Below, piece by piece: positions 3,885 to 28,168 of a DNA stretch of 28,168 nucleotides. This DNA is from a virus, in IMG/VR virus record IMGVR_UViG_3300027908_000023, positions 70,369-98,536 of that record, one strand, 5' to 3'. The position numbers and the translations under genes are program-made. Position 1 is the first letter of the stretch; the number at the start of each line of letters is the position of its first letter. The notes under the pieces were generated by a model. That model saw nothing but the letters and a program-made list of their open reading frames with translations. It was not told the origin of the DNA and made no database searches.

Positions 3885-4985
3885 ATGAAGCTCACGATTC
3901 AACTGCAACTGCTGCCAACCAGCGAACAAGCCACCATCCTGCTTGACACGATGGCGCGTGTGAATCAAGCTGCCACGTTCGCTGCGCAGCAAGGCTTTGA
4001 CAACGGCGTTTTCAGCCAACCGAGCATTCACAAGCTCGCCTACCGTGCCATCCGCGATCAGTTCGGCCTGTCCGCTCAACTGGCCGTGCGTGCCATCGGC
4101 AAGGCGGTGGAGACATTCCAGCGCGACAAGACGATATGCCCCATGTTCCGCCCCGATGGAGCCATTACCTACGATGAACGCAACATGGGCTTCAAGGGCG
4201 TGGACAAGGTTAGTCTGAGTACCTTGGCAGGCCGGCAGATCATCGGCATGGTCTATGGTGAGTATCAGCGTGAGAGATTCGACCGCATCAAGGGACAGTG
4301 CGATCTCGTCTACCGTGACAATAAGTTCTTCCTCATAGCCAACGTTGATCTTCCGGAAGCGCCGCCCCTGGAGATCAAGGCGTTTCTGGGCGTTGACCTT
4401 GGCCTCATCAATCTTGCCACGACGAGCCAGGGCGAGATGTTCAGCGGCGAGACGGTGAACCGCACACGCCGGCGTTGTGCGACGGCCAGAAAACAATACC
4501 AGCGGAAAGGAACGCGGAATGCCAAGCGACGATTGAAGAAGATCGGCAAACGCCAGTCGAGGTTTCAGACCTGGCGCAACCACAATATCGCCAAGCAGAT
4601 TGTCCAGACGGCAAAGGCACTTGGATTCGGCATCGCGATGGAGGATCTGACCGACATTCGCGAGCGGATCGAAGACACGGTTGGCCGTAGAACAAGACGG
4701 AGATTCGGCAACTGGAGTTTCCGGCAGTTGAGAGACTTCGTGTCCTACAAGGCACGCCTCGCCGGTGTGCCGGTCTGTCTGGTTGACCCGCGCAATACCT
4801 CTCGCATTTGTAGCAAGTGCGGCTATTGCGACAAGGCCAACCGCAAGACTCAGGATCGGTTTCTCTGCCTGCACTGCGGATTCTCCCTGAATGCCGACCT
4901 GAACGCCGCTGTCAACATCTCGTTGATAGCTTGGGATGCCTTTGTAAACCATCCCGAAAAGCAGCAGTCTTGCGTCTTCTCTTAA
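3885..4985 (+). CDS. tnpB: RNA-guided endonuclease TnpB
   Basis: MKLTIQLQLLPT start; RuvC-I GVDLG, RuvC-II IAMEDL, Zn finger CSKC/CLHC, RuvC-III NADLNAAVNI; DED triad intact. Confidence 0.95.
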   Translation: MKLTIQLQLLPTSEQATILLDTMARVNQAATFAAQQGFDNGVFSQPSIHKLAYRAIRDQFGLSAQLAVRAIGKAVETFQRDKTICPMFRPDGAITYDERNMGFKGVDKVSLSTLAGRQIIGMVYGEYQRERFDRIKGQCDLVYRDNKFFLIANVDLPEAPPLEIKAFLGVDLGLINLATTSQGEMFSGETVNRTRRRCATARKQYQRKGTRNAKRRLKKIGKRQSRFQTWRNHNIAKQIVQTAKALGFGIAMEDLTDIRERIEDTVGRRTRRRFGNWSFRQLRDFVSYKARLAGVPVCLVDPRNTSRICSKCGYCDKANRKTQDRFLCLHCGFSLNADLNAAVNISLIAWDAFVNHPEKQQSCVFS

Positions 4986-8595: not shown

Positions 8596-9086
8596 TTCCT
8601 CACGAGAATATCGATTAACCTCTCAGCATCGCTGCCTGTCATACCGTTCATGCCGAACGTCTGCACCAGTTGAATTCCGAACTGACCGTATCCCAGGAAG
8701 TCCGGCTCTTCATCTGAGAGATCATCGACCGCCGCATAATGTTTGACTTCAAGATGCTTGTCGAGCCAACGCCGCGCCAGAGCGCCACGATGATATGGCG
8801 GCCGCGACTCTGGATCAAAGTCTAAAATGCCGATGATCGGACTGTAATCGTCGCGGAGCCAAAGCAAGCCATGAGTGCGCAACAAGTATTGGAAGCCACC
8901 CAGCCTCATGCTTTCGCCCAAGACCATGTAACGCCATGCCGAACTGATAACGAGACGGCAATCGGTCTGGCGAATCACATGGTTCAGATGGTCAATGCAA
9001 TGAGCGTCGATGCCGCAGATGCCGGAATCGGCATGCTTGGCATGGTTGTTCAACACACCGTCCACGTCGAGAAATAGCGCTTTCAT
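8592..9086 (-). CDS. HAD-family phosphatase (Swiss-Army-Knife RNA-repair-type HAD domain)
   Basis: LFLDVDGVLN (DxD), VISSAWR, YAAVDD, and the G(L/M)T C-terminal motif. Confidence 0.85.
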   Translation of the reverse strand: MKALFLDVDGVLNNHAKHADSGICGIDAHCIDHLNHVIRQTDCRLVISSAWRYMVLGESMRLGGFQYLLRTHGLLWLRDDYSPIIGILDFDPESRPPYHRGALARRWLDKHLEVKHYAAVDDLSDEEPDFLGYGQFGIQLVQTFGMNGMTGSDAERLIDILVRK

Positions 9087-9298
9087 TCGACCGTCTCCCA
9101 CTCTTCAAGAAACTCCGTGTCGTGCTGAAGTCTCAGCGTGTGCGGCATCTCCTCATAGCTGCCATGCTCGACAAATATATGATGTCCACCGATGTTCCGA
9201 CACTCGATCCAGTGGTGTGGATTCATTTTCGACCACACGACCGGCCGAACGCGATGACCACCACCCTTACATAGATTCAACGCTTCGATGATGTCCAT
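9083..9298 (-). CDS. hypothetical phage protein
   Basis: MDIIEAL...EEWETVE end pattern common in small phage proteins; coupled. Confidence 0.55.
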   Translation of the reverse strand: MDIIEALNLCKGGGHRVRPVVWSKMNPHHWIECRNIGGHHIFVEHGSYEEMPHTLRLQHDTEFLEEWETVE

Positions 9299-13649: not shown

Positions 13650-15032
13650 TCAACGTGAACGATGCCGAACTGCCGGAGCGCTATACGCTCCATGCGCTCC
13701 GCTTGCAAGTGCAACTCGCGTGAGGTTGCCTCCAGACGAGCCACCTGATCCATCATGGGGTAGTGTCCTAACAATGCGTTGCCGGGTAGTGTCCTTACAT
13801 CGCGTTGGCGACTTCGGACTTCCTGTTTCATCGGATCGGCTTACCTCCCCGGACGTATGCCCGGTTCGACAGAGGCCGATTCCTCCACAGTTCGCGCCGA
13901 CCACTCTCAGCGCGCGAGCGTGAATCACCATACCGGAGGCTCTATCTCTCTCACAGCAGAGCCCACAGGGACAATTATGGAGACGCTCATTGAGACTCTT
14001 GTACTTTCTTGCACCACAAGCCGGGCAGTCCTGGCTTGTGTATCTCGCGTTCACTCCGATCGCATGACGGCCAGCGTTTGCAGCTTTGCTCGTCAGCAGC
14101 CGGAGGAACGATCCCCAGGCGGCATCGTGGATGGACTTGGCGAGAGGCGATCTGCACATGCCGCGAATGTTGAGATTCTCGAAGCCGATCAGATTGTACT
14201 GATTCACCAAACGACGCGCGGTCTGATGGGCGAAATCTCTACGCTGAGCCTGAATGCGCTCGTAATGCCTGGCAAGACGCCTGACCGCCTTGCGGCGGTT
14301 CCGAGAGCCTTTCTGCTTGCGGGATACCTGTTTGTGCAGGTGTTTGAGCTTCCGCTCAGACTTGCGATAGAACCTGGGATTCTCAATCTTGTCGCCGTTT
14401 GCCAGGACGGCGAAGGTCGTCAGGCCAACATCAAGGCCAGTGCTGGTCTGGAGAGACTCAACAGGGATTTTCTCCGGGATCTGGATGCCAGTATCGATGA
14501 CGACCTGAGCATACCAGCCGGAGGCACGATGGATAACGCGAAGCAACAACTGCTTGGCAATCGGTCCGGTGTCGAACATGCCGCGAGCCGTGACTTCGCC
14601 AAGAACCGGAATACGGATCGCGCCATCATGGATGTAGTTGCCGTGATGAAGATACTCCATCGACCGATAGCGATGATGGGCGCGGAACCTCGGATAACCC
14701 GGTTTCTCGCCAGCCTTGAGGCGACGGAAGAAGGCATCCATGCCTCGATCCAGACGGCGCAGCGAGTCGCGCAGGAAGACGACCGGAACCGGAGTCAGCA
14801 TCGGAATATGGGCACGCCAATCCTTCAGAATTTCGCACTGCCGAACAAAGCCGATGGATTCCTTCCTGCGCTTGTAGGCTTTTGTCCTCATCTCCAGCAT
14901 CTGATTGTAGGTCCAGCAACACGCGCCAAGCCAGGATTCAAGAGTATCTTCCTCTGTCTTGGACAGATAGAGCTTAAATTCCAGTGTCTTCTGGATCGTC
15001 CGGAGACCAGAGGCTTTCTTCTTTCTGTACAT
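13650..15032 (-). CDS. tnpB: RNA-guided endonuclease TnpB; the ORF reads out through the TIR
   Basis: KTLEFKLY, GYPRFR, RuvC-I GLDVGL, RuvC-II IGFENLNIRGM, DAAWGSF, Zn finger CPAC/CPC, RuvC-III ERDRAS; no in-frame stop inside the element. Confidence 0.93.
   Translation of the reverse strand: MYRKKKASGLRTIQKTLEFKLYLSKTEEDTLESWLGACCWTYNQMLEMRTKAYKRRKESIGFVRQCEILKDWRAHIPMLTPVPVVFLRDSLRRLDRGMDAFFRRLKAGEKPGYPRFRAHHRYRSMEYLHHGNYIHDGAIRIPVLGEVTARGMFDTGPIAKQLLLRVIHRASGWYAQVVIDTGIQIPEKIPVESLQTSTGLDVGLTTFAVLANGDKIENPRFYRKSERKLKHLHKQVSRKQKGSRNRRKAVRRLARHYERIQAQRRDFAHQTARRLVNQYNLIGFENLNIRGMCRSPLAKSIHDAAWGSFLRLLTSKAANAGRHAIGVNARYTSQDCPACGARKYKSLNERLHNCPCGLCCERDRASGMVIHARALRVVGANCGGIGLCRTGHTSGEVSRSDETGSPKSPTRCKDTTRQRIVRTLPHDGSGGSSGGNLTRVALASGAHGAYSAPAVRHRSR
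13785..13900 (-). ncRNA. putative omegaRNA scaffold overlapping the tnpB 3' end
   Basis: CTGTGGAG...GATGAAACAGGAAG motifs of the kind I recognise at tnpB 3' ends, then hairpin GTCC-GAA-GTCGC-CAAC-GCGAT-GTAA-GGAC; boundaries approximate. Confidence 0.55.
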
Positions 15033-15039
15033 GGACGGA

Positions 15040-15068
15040 AGTTTACCAGATGGGCGGAATGGTGTCAA
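15040..15068 (-). promoter_or_regulatory. sigma70 promoter inside the element, probably leaderless tnpB mRNA
   Basis: TTGACA (15068-15063), 17 nt ending TGG, TAAACT (15045-15040); 7 nt to ATG at 15032. Confidence 0.7.
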
Positions 15069-20251: not shown

Positions 20252-20660
20252 GATTGCTCTTTCTCCTCATGATCAGCGAGCCATTGATCCGCCACCACCA
20301 GCGCCTCATAGGGGCATTTGAACTCGCCGCGATGCTCTGTATGCATGTCGAATTCCAGCGGCATGTCGTAACCATTGATGGTTCGTACCCGCCAATACAG
20401 GCCAATCTTATGCCTGGACATCGGCACCACGTAGAGGCCGCGACGTATCATCACATCATGGGCGTTCCGTGCCAGGGCGATGAAGTGGGCGTTGGTGCCG
20501 ATGGGTTCGGGACCTTCGGGTTTGCCGCAATCGTTGAGGCCATAATGGCTCGACATGCAGGTGGTAGAAACCGGCACGCCGTTGGCATCGCGGACCAAGC
20601 CCCAATCGTCATGCTCTAACGGACGAACACGCCACGGTGCCGGCGAGAGTTTGTTGAGAT
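20248..20660 (-). CDS. phage protein (Ead/'TPGPW'-like) whose start lies in or before the CRISPR repeat
   Basis: LNKLSPAPWRV...NAHFIALARNA pattern; the only in-frame starts upstream of this motif are inside the mini-array. Confidence 0.65.
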
Positions 20661-21193
20661 GTTGCAATCTTCCTCCCATTGCACTGGCTGTTGTTACCAC
20701 GGATCAGGTACAGGTCTATCCGCTGACCATCGGGGGTTGCAATCTTCCTGCCATTGCACTGGCTGTTGTTACTATCCAGAATCGGCAAATCGCGCCAACC
20801 TTCCAACTCTTCGCCTGGATGAATACGGATACTCAATCCTCTGGCCACCAAATCAAAGCGGCGATCAGATTCCTCTCGGCAAGGCCGTCGTGGTCCTGGA
20901 TAAACTTCGGCGCTGCGAACTGTTTCCCAGAAGCCATGAACCTTGGCGAATTTGTCCTTGCCGTCCAGCAGAATACGCTCTACTTCGATCTGTCGTAACT
21001 CCTTCAACAACGACAAGAGTTCTTCAGCATCATAGTCCGCTTCAAACCAGGATGCCAGCAGGCGAACCGCCGGGAAACCATAACCATCAACAACCTGGAG
21101 GTTAAACCCGTGTGGCTTCGGATCGTGAAAGATCAGCAGATTGAGCGCCAGCAACTCTTGCTGAATGGCGCTGACGAGTTCCGCTTCGCTCAT
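20609..21193 (-). CDS. hypothetical protein reading through the mini-array
   Basis: Start MSEAEL after GAGGAG; the repeats translate as NNSQCNGRKIAT twice. Confidence 0.55.
   Translation of the reverse strand: MSEAELVSAIQQELLALNLLIFHDPKPHGFNLQVVDGYGFPAVRLLASWFEADYDAEELLSLLKELRQIEVERILLDGKDKFAKVHGFWETVRSAEVYPGPRRPCREESDRRFDLVARGLSIRIHPGEELEGWRDLPILDSNNSQCNGRKIATPDGQRIDLYLIRGNNSQCNGRKIATSQQTLAGTVACSSVRA
20661..20772 (-). CRISPR. mini-array: two type-B repeats and one 38-bp spacer
   Basis: Repeats 20661-20697 and 20736-20772, GTTGCAATCTTCCT(C/G)CCATTGCACTGGCTGTTGTTAC; the second is identical to 27845-27881. Confidence 0.9.
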
Positions 21194-24504: not shown

Positions 24505-24608
24505 TTTCATTTAGTATTTTGCAGTTTGCATTTTAGATTTTGCATTGTTCAGCACATGGCTTGATGAATGCAAAATCTAAAATGCAAACTGCAAAATACT
24601 GAATGAAA
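24505..24608. repeat. 104-bp heptamer-built palindromic element, copy 2 (42-bp arms, 41/42 complementary)
   Basis: Arms 24505-24546 and 24567-24608, 20-nt loop; first 28 nt identical to copy 1. Confidence 0.92.
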
Positions 24609-24690
24609 GAAATCGCCTCCGCGCCGTCGATCGACAACGAGCCGATCCGCCGTTCGCAACGTGCGTCGCAAGGGGAGCGGAGATTGACAT

Positions 24691-24727
24691 GTTGCAACCT
24701 TCATCCCGTTACACCGGGCATTGTTAC
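24691..24727 (-). CRISPR. solitary CRISPR repeat (type C)
   Basis: GTTGCAACCTTCATCCCGTTACACCGGGCATTGTTAC, identical to 27995-28031 and 28070-28106. Confidence 0.92.
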
Positions 24728-24900
24728 GAATTTCATGTCAACTCGACGACGCAGAGGCAATGTGAAAATCCTTCGCGGTGTCCTGGAACCACAAGTTCCT
24801 TCCCCCAACCCACCTACTTGCCAAGGAAAAACCCACATGGTGCCATCGGAACGGAACGCACCACCATATGAGCCGGACACCGCGAAGAAACCAATCCGGC
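24728..24900 (-). promoter_or_regulatory. CRISPR leader-like region
   Basis: No convincing ORF; perfect 13-bp inverted repeat CTTCGCGGTGTCC (24771-24783) / GGACACCGCGAAG (24875-24887) near the repeat. Confidence 0.5.
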
Positions 24901-26374: not shown

Positions 26375-27256
26375 CTATTGCTCCTCAGAAAGATTCCTTG
26401 CCGGCACATGAAGCCTCATCTGCCCGGCCTTGGTTACCTTGCGCGTGATGACTCTGCCGTCACTGAGTTTACCAGCGCCGGCACAACCCAGCGCCTCGAT
26501 GATTCGACACTTGTAAGATTCCCTGGTGCGTTCCATCTCGCTGAGTTGTTCGCCGAGTCCCACATAGGCATCGGCAACTTCTTCCATCTCTGTATCGAGT
26601 TCTATACTCTTTGTTTCGTCTGGATGAAAGAGCAAGTTAAGTATTTTCGCCGTGTTGGGATGTTGATAATCGAACGCTGGCGGCTCCTGCCGGCAAACCC
26701 TATCCCATAACTCTGAGGCAGCGGTCAAGAGCAGTTGCTGTATCTCTTGATTGCGCTCCACGGTATAGATTCTAAAATCGCTGCCGCCAACCAACACCGC
26801 GACATCGACGCTCTCTATCTCCAACTCCACAGCCGAAAGCATCTGCCATTGTGTCTGGCAAAAGTAGTATTCAGGAACCTGATCGGTTCCGGGCGTACCC
26901 CAACCTTTGCGCTCGTCAGTGCGCTTAATCTCGACAAACTTTCTCTCGTTCCTGATTCCACGGTCGGGTGTGGAGATGACCCAACGGTGTTCAGGGTGTC
27001 TTAGAATTGGCGGATCAAACTGGAACAACTCGTGGCCGGTTTCCAGAGCGTAGACCTGTGCGATGACATCTTCCAGGAGCCGGCCCCACTCCATTGAGGG
27101 ATTGTCGTAGTCCAGCGACTTTCCCAGCTTGTCGGCATATACGTCAAGTGGTCCACCCCAACTTGGAGGAGCCAGGCCGACCACCTTGGCGATCTCGGAA
27201 GCGCCGATGCCGCTACGGCGTTCGGCTAGCCAGATCGTGCGCTGTTCAGGTGTCAT
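26375..27256 (-). CDS. YqaJ/lambda-exonuclease-family recombination nuclease
   Basis: WLAERRSGIGASE, WGRLLE, STPDR, VEIKR, YFCQTQWQM. Confidence 0.95.
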   Translation of the reverse strand: MTPEQRTIWLAERRSGIGASEIAKVVGLAPPSWGGPLDVYADKLGKSLDYDNPSMEWGRLLEDVIAQVYALETGHELFQFDPPILRHPEHRWVISTPDRGIRNERKFVEIKRTDERKGWGTPGTDQVPEYYFCQTQWQMLSAVELEIESVDVAVLVGGSDFRIYTVERNQEIQQLLLTAASELWDRVCRQEPPAFDYQHPNTAKILNLLFHPDETKSIELDTEMEEVADAYVGLGEQLSEMERTRESYKCRIIEALGCAGAGKLSDGRVITRKVTKAGQMRLHVPARNLSEEQ

Positions 27257-27615
27257 CTGGTTCCTACTCCATGCAGTTCCTTGAGAAGATCATCTATCAC
27301 CAGTGCCAGTTCTGCTGCCGCATCCTCTAATCTTGTTGTGTCCCACCATGCAGCGAAAATGCGAAGTTCTCTTGAAGTATTATGCCAGAGCCAGCAGCGA
27401 TACTCCAGACGAAACGCCTCGGGTTTTCCCTTGCCGTGATAGATCAGGAATGCGAAGGGATCAAGTGCGCCGATCGTTCCTGAGTTGTTTTCGATCAACC
27501 ATTTTCCCTGGCAGAGCGCCATCTTGTGCGTGCCATGAAGCAGATCAAGCAGAGATCGCAGGGTCGGCACTGAGACATCCGCTGCCAGCTTCGCGAAGGC
27601 TTTGGGGCCGGTCAT
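27253..27615 (-). CDS. hypothetical protein
   Basis: GAGG RBS; ATGA coupling to the YqaJ gene. Confidence 0.55.
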   Translation of the reverse strand: MTGPKAFAKLAADVSVPTLRSLLDLLHGTHKMALCQGKWLIENNSGTIGALDPFAFLIYHGKGKPEAFRLEYRCWLWHNTSRELRIFAAWWDTTRLEDAAAELALVIDDLLKELHGVGTR

Positions 27616-27698
27616 GCGGCAGTCCTCTCGTTCTGTTTCAGTTCGCGCCGGGCGAAGAGGCCACCCAGCGTATCGGCGTGGCGTTTTATCATAGGTTT

Positions 27699-28168
27699 GG
27701 CGCAACCTTCAGGCCGTTGCACCGGCCATTGTTACGCATCGGGGGCCATTTTGCCATACTTCTCAATCCTGCAGTTGCAACCTTCAAGCCGTTGCACCGG
27801 CCATTGTTACTGCAACGGCTTGAAGGTTGCAACAACTGAGCAGAGTTGCAATCTTCCTGCCATTGCACTGGCTGTTGTTACGAGGCGTCGGTTCGACTCT
27901 GATACCTCACCCGACCGCTGCGTTGCAACCTTCAAGCCGTTGCACCGGCCATTGTTGCCGTGAATCGCCCGCTGACCGGATTGACCAGATGACAGTTGCA
28001 ACCTTCATCCCGTTACACCGGGCATTGTTACGCCGCTGATAACGCTTGGACGACCGTGGCGCAGATCAGGTTGCAACCTTCATCCCGTTACACCGGGCAT
28101 TGTTACTTTGTACCGTTTTGCCCGTCCGGTGCGCGTCTCAATGTTGCAACCTTCATCCCGTTACACCG
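27699..28168 (-). CRISPR. CRISPR array with heterogeneous 37-bp repeats (at least 7 repeats, 6 spacers), cut off by the window end
   Basis: Repeats start at 27699, 27774, 27845, 27922, 27995, 28070 and 28143 (partial); spacers are 38, 34, 40, 36, 38 and 36 bp. The degenerate repeat at 27699 suggests the trailer end, so transcription on minus (repeat ends ...GAAGGTTGCAAC). Confidence 0.95.

Follow-up and report, generated by a model that had tools for sequence, protein, structure and literature searches.

How does a single CRISPR array in a virus come to hold three kinds of repeat, and which Cas protein would read them? The question is raised by a stretch of 28,168 nt (the window, meaning the whole stretch that was analysed), which is the final 28 kb of a 98.5 kb linear IMG/VR viral record and carries at its end (27699-28168) seven 37-nt repeats in the order A* A B A* C C C, the last copy being cut and A* denoting changed copies of A. 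The record ends inside the array, and the window end is thus a contig end. An earlier note on the window had taken the array for a cas-less one recombined from the arrays of different hosts. We consider it probable that the repeats at the window end belong instead to a phage-encoded type V-M (Cas12m) system and make up the effector-distal half of its array; one effector would read all repeat variants, and the heterogeneity would come from adaptation-free divergence and shuffling of the units. The phage that carries the array and cas12m is a soil phage of 132 kb.

The array and the effector beside it

The repeat positions, their order, the three consensus sequences and the pairwise differences (A/B 7, A/C 4, B/C 9) were all reproduced exactly on recount. 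A degenerate consensus pattern matched six times in the window against 0.00 matches expected by chance, and the spacers between the repeats were unique, with lengths of 38, 34, 40, 36, 38 and 36 nt (34-40 nt). The functional strand of the array is predicted to be the minus strand of the window, and the units are listed below in window coordinates.

27699-27735, minus strand: terminal repeat, A-type (A*, three changes), degenerate and farthest from cas12m; covariance model 36.4 bits
27736-27773, minus strand: spacer S1, 38 nt, the guide of the repeat-A unit with the hairpin-locked scaffold
27774-27810, minus strand: repeat variant A; covariance model 44.8 bits
27811-27844 (L011:9413-9446), minus strand: "spacer" S2, 34 nt, in which 27811-27833 carries the 3' 23 nt of repeat A in inverted orientation
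27845-27881, minus strand: repeat variant B, of which three identical copies lie dispersed in the phage
27882-27921, minus strand: spacer S3, 40 nt
27922-27958, minus strand: repeat variant A4 (A*, one change: A with column 2 U>C)
27959-27994, minus strand: spacer S4, 36 nt
27995-28031, minus strand: repeat variant C
28032-28069, minus strand: spacer S5, 38 nt
28070-28106, minus strand: repeat variant C
28107-28142, minus strand: spacer S6, 36 nt, a member of the three-unit block that the longer scaffold carries twice
28143-28168, minus strand: repeat variant C, cut at the contig end

A YqaJ gene adjoins the array, and the identical sequence was present on a 132.6 kb ENA scaffold of the same phage (L011), which runs reversed relative to the window, as well as on short JGI and Logan contigs. 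The window tail matched the scaffold at 668 of 668 positions, and the mosaic repeat order was reproduced in independent contigs from other samples (640/640 identical in L013 and 289/289 in L012). Since the same order recurs in independent assemblies, a chimeric assembly, the possibility that the earlier note had raised against itself, is excluded as the source of the mosaic.

On the scaffold, six further repeats (D D D C C D), among them a fourth variant, D, lead from the window end to a 724-aa gene at L011:6455-8629. The full array (L011:8640-9558, 13 repeats) begins 10 nt past the stop codon of this gene and lies on the same strand. Three separate assemblies terminate inside the array. A three-unit repeat-spacer block is present twice in the scaffold (L011:8750-8968 and 8969-9187), and the IMG/VR record and two JGI contigs break within or beside it; this duplication, or population heterogeneity at the block, would account for the truncated window. 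The duplication may itself be an assembly artefact, in which case the array would hold 10 repeats rather than 13.

The 724-aa protein was matched by phmmer to the PDB entry 23vw "Cas12m" (E 4.6e-36) and to UnCas12m4a (6e-6), and the best PADLOC model was Cas12u1 (E 8.8e-47), with protein residues 40-640 aligned to profile positions 24-528 of 533; no NCBIfam model matched it. Its AlphaFold model (pLDDT 82, pTM 0.79, the last ~75 residues disordered) has the Cas12m fold, a fold that comprises WED, REC with a coiled-coil insertion, RuvC and TNB. In the Foldseek search of this model, ranks 1-4 were taken by GoCas12m (8pm4) and MmCas12m2 (8hhl, 8hio, 8hhm) at a target template modelling (TM) score of 0.67-0.77, with E 1e-23 and target TM 0.76-0.77 for 8pm4 and 8hhl, whereas the best Cas12f match reached E 2e-11 and all Cas12f chains stayed at a target TM of 0.56 or below. 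An alignment of 52 sequences indicated that N350 replaces the RuvC-I Asp and that the RuvC-II Glu is absent, with D547 in "GKVD" (G544..D547) standing three residues on, as in other Asn-type relatives, while the RuvC-III D631 in "DQD" and two CxxC pairs (CWHC, CSLC) are kept. Because the PDB sequence match, the PADLOC model and the predicted fold agree, the protein is assigned as a divergent Cas12m (type V-M), predicted to belong to the non-cleaving N-D-D RuvC class. An exhaustive HMMER search of 1.8 billion representative proteins gave 436 relatives below 1e-30 and none above 50% identity; since the best relatives were 34-37% identical and 540-650 aa long, the phage protein appears, by sequence comparison, to be a deep-branching and enlarged member.

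The apparent lack of cas genes is thus due to the contig break inside the array, and the sequence beyond 28168, which the earlier note had proposed to inspect for a leader or cas genes, holds cas12m and no leader. Borrowing of host Cas proteins by the array is not supported: cas12m ends 10 nt before the first repeat, and the 126 kb of phage sequence covered (the 98.5 kb record plus another 28 kb from L011, L015 and L017, of the 132.6 kb scaffold) contain one CRISPR effector only, which speaks against guides made for several Cas variants. No match to Cas1 or Cas2 was found in the 98.5 kb record (G000), nor was either among the Pfam hits of the genes on the other 28 kb. An AT-rich leader was sought and none was found in the mere 10 nt between cas12m and repeat 1. 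Consequently, the premise that Cas1-Cas2 copying keeps arrays uniform does not apply to this array. The small genes that flank cas12m and the array gave nothing with PHROGs and Pfam. Neither cas12m nor the array is present in the nearest relative of the replication module that flanks them, which marks the cassette as accessory.

Type V-M CRISPR-Cas12m was reportedly characterised by Wu in 2022. The characterised systems of this type, formerly V-U1 (PMC10442227), include MmCas12m2, GoCas12m and the Ms, Tf, Ap, Un, Pp and Mk orthologues (Omura 2023, PMC10442227; Bigelyte 2024, PMC11013384). Cas12m proteins of the D-E-D, H-D-D and N-D-D classes all bind DNA in dependence on a protospacer-adjacent motif (PAM) without cutting it, have no trans-activating CRISPR RNA (tracrRNA), and process the precursor of the CRISPR RNA (crRNA) independently of RuvC (PMC11013384). 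Such systems are known on plasmids and some prophages and are thought to serve competition between elements (PMC11656645).

The phage system resembles them in the effector fold and sequence family, the non-canonical RuvC triad of the N-D-D class and the TNB zinc finger; in a single effector gene followed by a co-oriented array of 36-37-nt repeats with a stem, a pseudoknot and an AC end; and in its place on a mobile element, with no adaptation genes nearby. It departs from them in the size of the effector (724 aa, including the disordered C-terminal tail of ~75 aa, versus about 540-620 aa), in an identity of at most 37% to any of the 1.8 billion representative proteins, and in an array that abuts the gene without a leader, has non-identical repeats and leaves extra copies scattered through the genome. 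The carrier, unlike a plasmid or prophage, is a 132 kb phage, and no integrase was noticed in its annotated regions. CasPhi (Cas12j) and CasLambda (Cas12l) are small active nucleases of other Cas12 branches. These are likewise found on phages as a single Cas12 with an array and without an adaptation module, but the structural similarity of the 724-aa model to them is far lower (target TM 0.2-0.33).

Repeat scaffold and divergence of the units

The minus-strand repeats were predicted to fold at -12 to -16 kcal/mol, compared with -5 to -6 kcal/mol for the plus strand. Each comprises a 5' U-ACAA element, a GCC/GGC-type stem, a loop UGCAAC that pairs with the 3' tail GUUGCA, and an AC end, and variant D shares 27 of 36 positions with the ApCas12m crRNA scaffold in an alignment made by hand (PMC11013384 Table S5). 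The functional RNA was placed on the minus strand because of this likeness and the more stable folding, together with the co-orientation with cas12m and the distal position of the degenerate repeat. No CRISPR-DR or other Rfam family matched the repeat, and only sub-threshold miRNA-like matches to a long palindrome were returned.

To the seven repeat variants of the phage we aligned the repeats of four related Cas12m loci, giving five loci in all. In this alignment, a 3-bp stem and a 6-bp pseudoknot were paired in 97.7% of 261 cells, with double changes in seven of the nine pairs. The covariation score of 0.53 compares with at most 0.11 in slid controls and was reached by none of 500 shuffles. 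When the model was applied to the phage and its closest relative (L018) alone, 98.9% of the cells were paired. The 3' tail of the repeat covaries also with the 5' end, which fits a triplex, and a triplex-pseudoknot core is present in the GoCas12m structure (PMC11013384).

Within the phage, C differs from A at columns 10/23 (G-C to C-G), at column 17 (a C-G pair to a U-G wobble) and at one unpaired column, and B differs from A at columns 20/30 (C-G to U-A, a pseudoknot pair) and at five unpaired columns. Variant D matches C save for one loop change, which restores the loop base. The changes in both A* copies keep or strengthen pairing; in the terminal repeat, T>C at column 24 turns G9-C24 into a Watson-Crick pair, although its 3' end reads GCGCC in place of GCAAC. 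No paired-column substitution breaks pairing in A, A4, the terminal A, B, C or D, and two of the changes within the phage are double compensatory ones. The sole variant with a broken pair is B', the second repeat of a mini-array elsewhere in the window, in which one change disrupts stem pair 10/23. The claim that the stem covaries was therefore correct for columns 10/23, while the G-C to A-U change that had been assigned to the stem as well is better explained by the pseudoknot pair 20/30. The view that the variants are functional and not decayed was borne out by the two double changes, by the lack of any pair-breaking change in the array, and by B, which is identical in four copies at four places spread over 100 kb.

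The layout of the array is polar. The units proximal to cas12m are of types D and C and at most one loop base apart, followed distally by A4, B, A and the terminal A; spacer lengths are irregular distally (34-40 nt) versus 36 nt proximally. In the minus-strand transcript, the inverted copy in S2 and the adjacent repeat A would close into a hairpin of 23 perfect base pairs around a 14-nt loop (fold z -5.6), and this 23-nt inverted partial repeat is the only anti-repeat in the 126 kb. It is probably a rearrangement scar at the B/A junction; apart from such a scar, the hairpin could represent a block to processing or a site for RNase III. In its geometry it recalls the anti-repeat-loop-repeat-guide order of a single-guide RNA.

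Among the other explanations, the one that best survives is decay at the trailer end, by which the effector-proximal D and C units alone would be functional and the A and B units of the window would be old, drifting remnants without a role. The polar heterogeneity, the irregular distal spacers, the altered 3' end of the terminal repeat and the sequestration of one A unit in the 23-bp hairpin are all as decay would leave them. Nevertheless, we judge this reading unlikely, since every substitution in a paired column of the array keeps pairing, the double compensatory changes included, B has stayed identical across 100 kb, and the heterogeneity in related systems spans whole arrays and not the distal end alone.

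Of four arrays sampled from related Cas12m loci, three share this heterogeneity, which is thus a trait of the clade. All repeats were distinct, with compensatory changes, in the closest relative, which is likewise in a phage context (L018, 4/4), in L023 (3/3) and in the array of an Asn-type Cas12m (L024:4167-5039, 13/13, mean 5.9 differences), the last with a compensatory stem change from GCC/GGC to GTC/GAC and a unit spacing of 61 to 74 nt. L021 was the sole array with uniform repeats. Mixed repeats, which the earlier note had considered abnormal, are thus usual among the arrays of this kind that were sampled.

Dispersed repeat copies and the source of the units

Outside the array, exact copies of B were found at three loci and an exact copy of C at one, all on the cas12m strand. 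Together they amount to five repeat copies at four dispersed loci, co-oriented with the phage genes and in regions called intergenic. Two of the loci lie in the window, and two further solitary B copies lie elsewhere in the phage.

24691-24727, minus strand: solitary repeat, exact C, intergenic, in array orientation, with short flanking inverted repeats
20661-20772, minus strand: mini-array of B (20736-20772), a 38-nt spacer and B' (20661-20697)

The flanks of the solitary C (window 24655-24760) carry the inverted repeats GAGTTGACATG / CATGTCAATCTC and TGCGTCG / CGACGCA, which in RNA would pair into a stem with the repeat exposed in its loop. The mini-array overlaps the 3' part of a predicted open reading frame of 194 aa (window 20609-21193, L011:16064-16648), in which the 75-nt repeat period is in frame; this reading frame is without Pfam or PHROG support and was rejected by a caller based on third-position GC content (GC3). 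A covariance-model sweep of 160 kb yielded no additional diverged repeat copies. The promoter motif AAK-N16-CGAA was absent within 1.5 kb upstream of cas12m, the array, the solitary C, the mini-array and the solitary B near cas12m; one loose match was found ~1 kb upstream of the other solitary B.

Several observations were made beside these copies. A 47-nt AT-rich near-perfect palindrome (window 24505-24608, 94% complementary, 10-nt centre) with many TTTGCA motifs lies 82 nt downstream of the solitary C on the minus strand, upstream of the next gene; it scores in Rfam merely as a generic long hairpin and may serve as operator, origin or processing hairpin. Hairpins that resemble a tRNA T-arm lie directly after a solitary B (L011:199-235, CCAGG-TTCGAGT-CCTGG) and ~45 nt upstream of the cas12m start (L011:6395-6430, CCCGG-TTCGATG-CCGGG), the latter with a possible acceptor-like pairing of 7 bp ~110 nt upstream. 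No tRNA was called at these hairpins by ARAGORN or Rfam, and an RNA ligase gene and an HD-domain gene are located nearby. In the closest relative, a solitary degenerate repeat (L018:3894-3930) lies ~70 nt upstream of the cas12m start codon, a position that recalls the solitary repeats upstream of cas12a, proposed as autoregulatory.

RNA anti-CRISPRs (Racrs), viral solitary repeats and cas-less mini-arrays are known to mimic the CRISPR repeats of hosts (Camara-Wilpert 2023, PMC10651486; Koonin & Makarova 2024, PMC11656645), and standalone repeat-like regulators occur in CRISPR-cas loci as CreA/CreR, tracr-L and the solitary repeats upstream of cas12a (Shmakov 2023, bioRxiv 10.1101/2023.03.03.530964). 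The phage resembles the former in its single repeats and one-spacer mini-array in regions called intergenic, and differs from them in that its repeats match its own array and effector, with no host match in 185,579 species genomes. Isolated repeats outside an array are shared with the standalone regulators, in the closest relative even just upstream of cas12m, whereas the phage has its own at distances of 3-90 kb from cas12m.

On these grounds, the array variants and isolated copies could act chiefly as Racr-like mimics or crRNA-like regulators that titrate or redirect the Cas12m of a host or a competing element, and not as guides in an immunity-like function of the phage itself. The five co-oriented copies at four intergenic loci, the solitary repeat of the relative and the precedents of viral Racrs and cas12a-linked repeats would suit such a role, which we hold to be very unlikely, however, because the phage has an effector of its own, these repeats are not on record from any host V-M array, and partial self-targets of the pseudo-spacers do not exceed chance. 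No detectable partial match of the pseudo-spacers of the isolated repeats to promoters in the phage was found. A 24-nt self-target search of the guides (up to 6 mismatches) gave ~9 weak matches with 5-6 mismatches versus ~1 expected from shuffled guides, none of them convincing, and an 11-12-nt seed search stayed at chance level.

The source of the units was sought in databases. With exact and loosened consensus patterns, the repeat family had no match in the 185,579 species genomes or in IMG/VR, and in the JGI metagenomes it was found in this same phage only; pure A, B or C arrays at distinct loci, which the earlier note had expected if the units came from different arrays, were thus nowhere among them. 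Shuffling of units remains plausible, given the recurrence of B and C in the phage, the duplicated three-unit block and the scar at the B/A junction, while origins in different arrays or hosts are not supported. It is therefore extremely unlikely that a cas-less phage array was recombined from arrays of different hosts, whether as guides for several host Cas variants or as a record of host switching: three or four repeat types in one array, the scar and the documented cas-less viral mini-arrays and solitary repeats that use host Cas (PMC11656645, PMC10651486) had favoured it, but the array lies directly beside the gene of its cognate effector, the repeat family was found in none of these collections outside this phage, one scaffold fits all variants, and related Cas12m arrays are likewise mixed. 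Overall, the earlier interpretation is partly supported: it was right on functional variants and some unit shuffling, and wrong on a cas-less array, several hosts and a layout unusual for the subtype.

Proposed mechanism and neighbouring genes

For the phage-encoded type V-M system, the published Cas12m biochemistry suggests the following mode of action. The cas12m gene and the array would be transcribed as one unit, as expected by homology; a consensus-signal scan also detected neither a sigma-70-type promoter nor an intrinsic terminator within the array or behind it. Cas12m would cut the precursor inside the repeats in a RuvC-independent manner, and crRNAs of ~50-60 nt, each comprising a repeat scaffold and the downstream spacer, would guide it to PAM-flanked double-stranded DNA. 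There it would bind the target without cutting and block transcription or replication, the likely targets being competing mobile elements or host genes. Without Cas1-Cas2 and a leader, the units would not be renewed from a single template, which we infer to be the cause of the heterogeneity. Mutation under selection for the scaffold fold would make them diverge, and duplications, as well as recombination with the exact copies of B and C found elsewhere in the phage, would reshuffle them.

Several points weigh against this explanation. The protein shares less than 37% identity with any relative, exceeds the relatives by 120-150 aa in length, and may differ in its properties from the characterised Cas12m. 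A host could supply Cas1-Cas2 in trans, and of the 132.6 kb scaffold 126 kb were covered. The covariation analysis draws on a small sample of five loci, whose sequences are related to one another. No protospacer was found when the whole array was compared in distant mode with cultured phages and plasmids, or when three spacers were searched as exact 26-mers against IMG/VR. Transcription, processing and strand are deduced from homology and co-orientation. Finally, the A-type repeats are confined to the distal part of the array, and the distal units could be partly inactive, considering the altered 3' end of the terminal repeat and the repeat-A unit locked in the 23-bp hairpin.

A further idea, which we put forward as doubtful, is that adaptation-free phage Cas12m arrays are hard-wired guide cassettes in which each unit has its own co-evolving scaffold and the divergence itself is selected. 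One advantage might be that the units are shielded from deletion through the YqaJ/annealing recombination system that the phage encodes beside the array. The solitary B and C copies in polycistronic early transcripts would then be Cas12m-dependent processing or regulatory sites, and one nuclease-dead Cas12m would act both against competitors and in the phage's own gene expression.

With the probable assignment to type V-M, a mosaic array that had seemed to lack cas genes is reclassified as part of a complete phage-borne system, whose putative Cas12m of 724 aa and the N-D-D class is very divergent (at most 37% identical to anything on record) and resides in a 132 kb soil phage. The heterogeneity of its repeats, together with that in three of the four sampled relatives, is a natural mutagenesis experiment whose covariation supports the stem and pseudoknot core. 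The scaffold positions that tolerate change are revealed as well, which is useful for recombination-resistant multiplex Cas12m arrays in CRISPR interference (CRISPRi) and base editing. The system raises the questions of how adaptation-less arrays on mobile elements evolve and what role solitary repeats have when the element has its own effector.

The first gene downstream of the array starts 82 nt past the terminal repeat, and no terminator was detected between the two.

27253-27616, minus strand: 120-aa phage gene, no family

The phage also carries four TnpB-like genes, at window 3885-4985 (plus strand), window 13650-15068 (minus), G000 38951-40360 (minus) and L017:1325-2431 (minus), and no repeat or anti-repeat was found near any of them. 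The product of the first, a 366-aa TnpB/Cas12f-like protein, had been considered as the owner of the repeats, which resemble those of Cas14a, and was dropped after the adjacent Cas12m was found; it has no repeat or anti-repeat nearby and belongs to a large TnpB-like family. A search for related loci with the TnpB-like protein and YqaJ as queries returned no relatives. The structures nearest to the 366-aa protein were those of AsCas12f/Cas12f (E 3e-26), and members of its family, 60-76% identical, occur on many contigs, several of them of 100-140 kb. The other TnpB-like genes comprise an ISDra2-like TnpB (E 1e-46), one resembling the mimivirus Fanzor2/L79 (E 4e-21), and a 368-aa copy near the other end of the genome.

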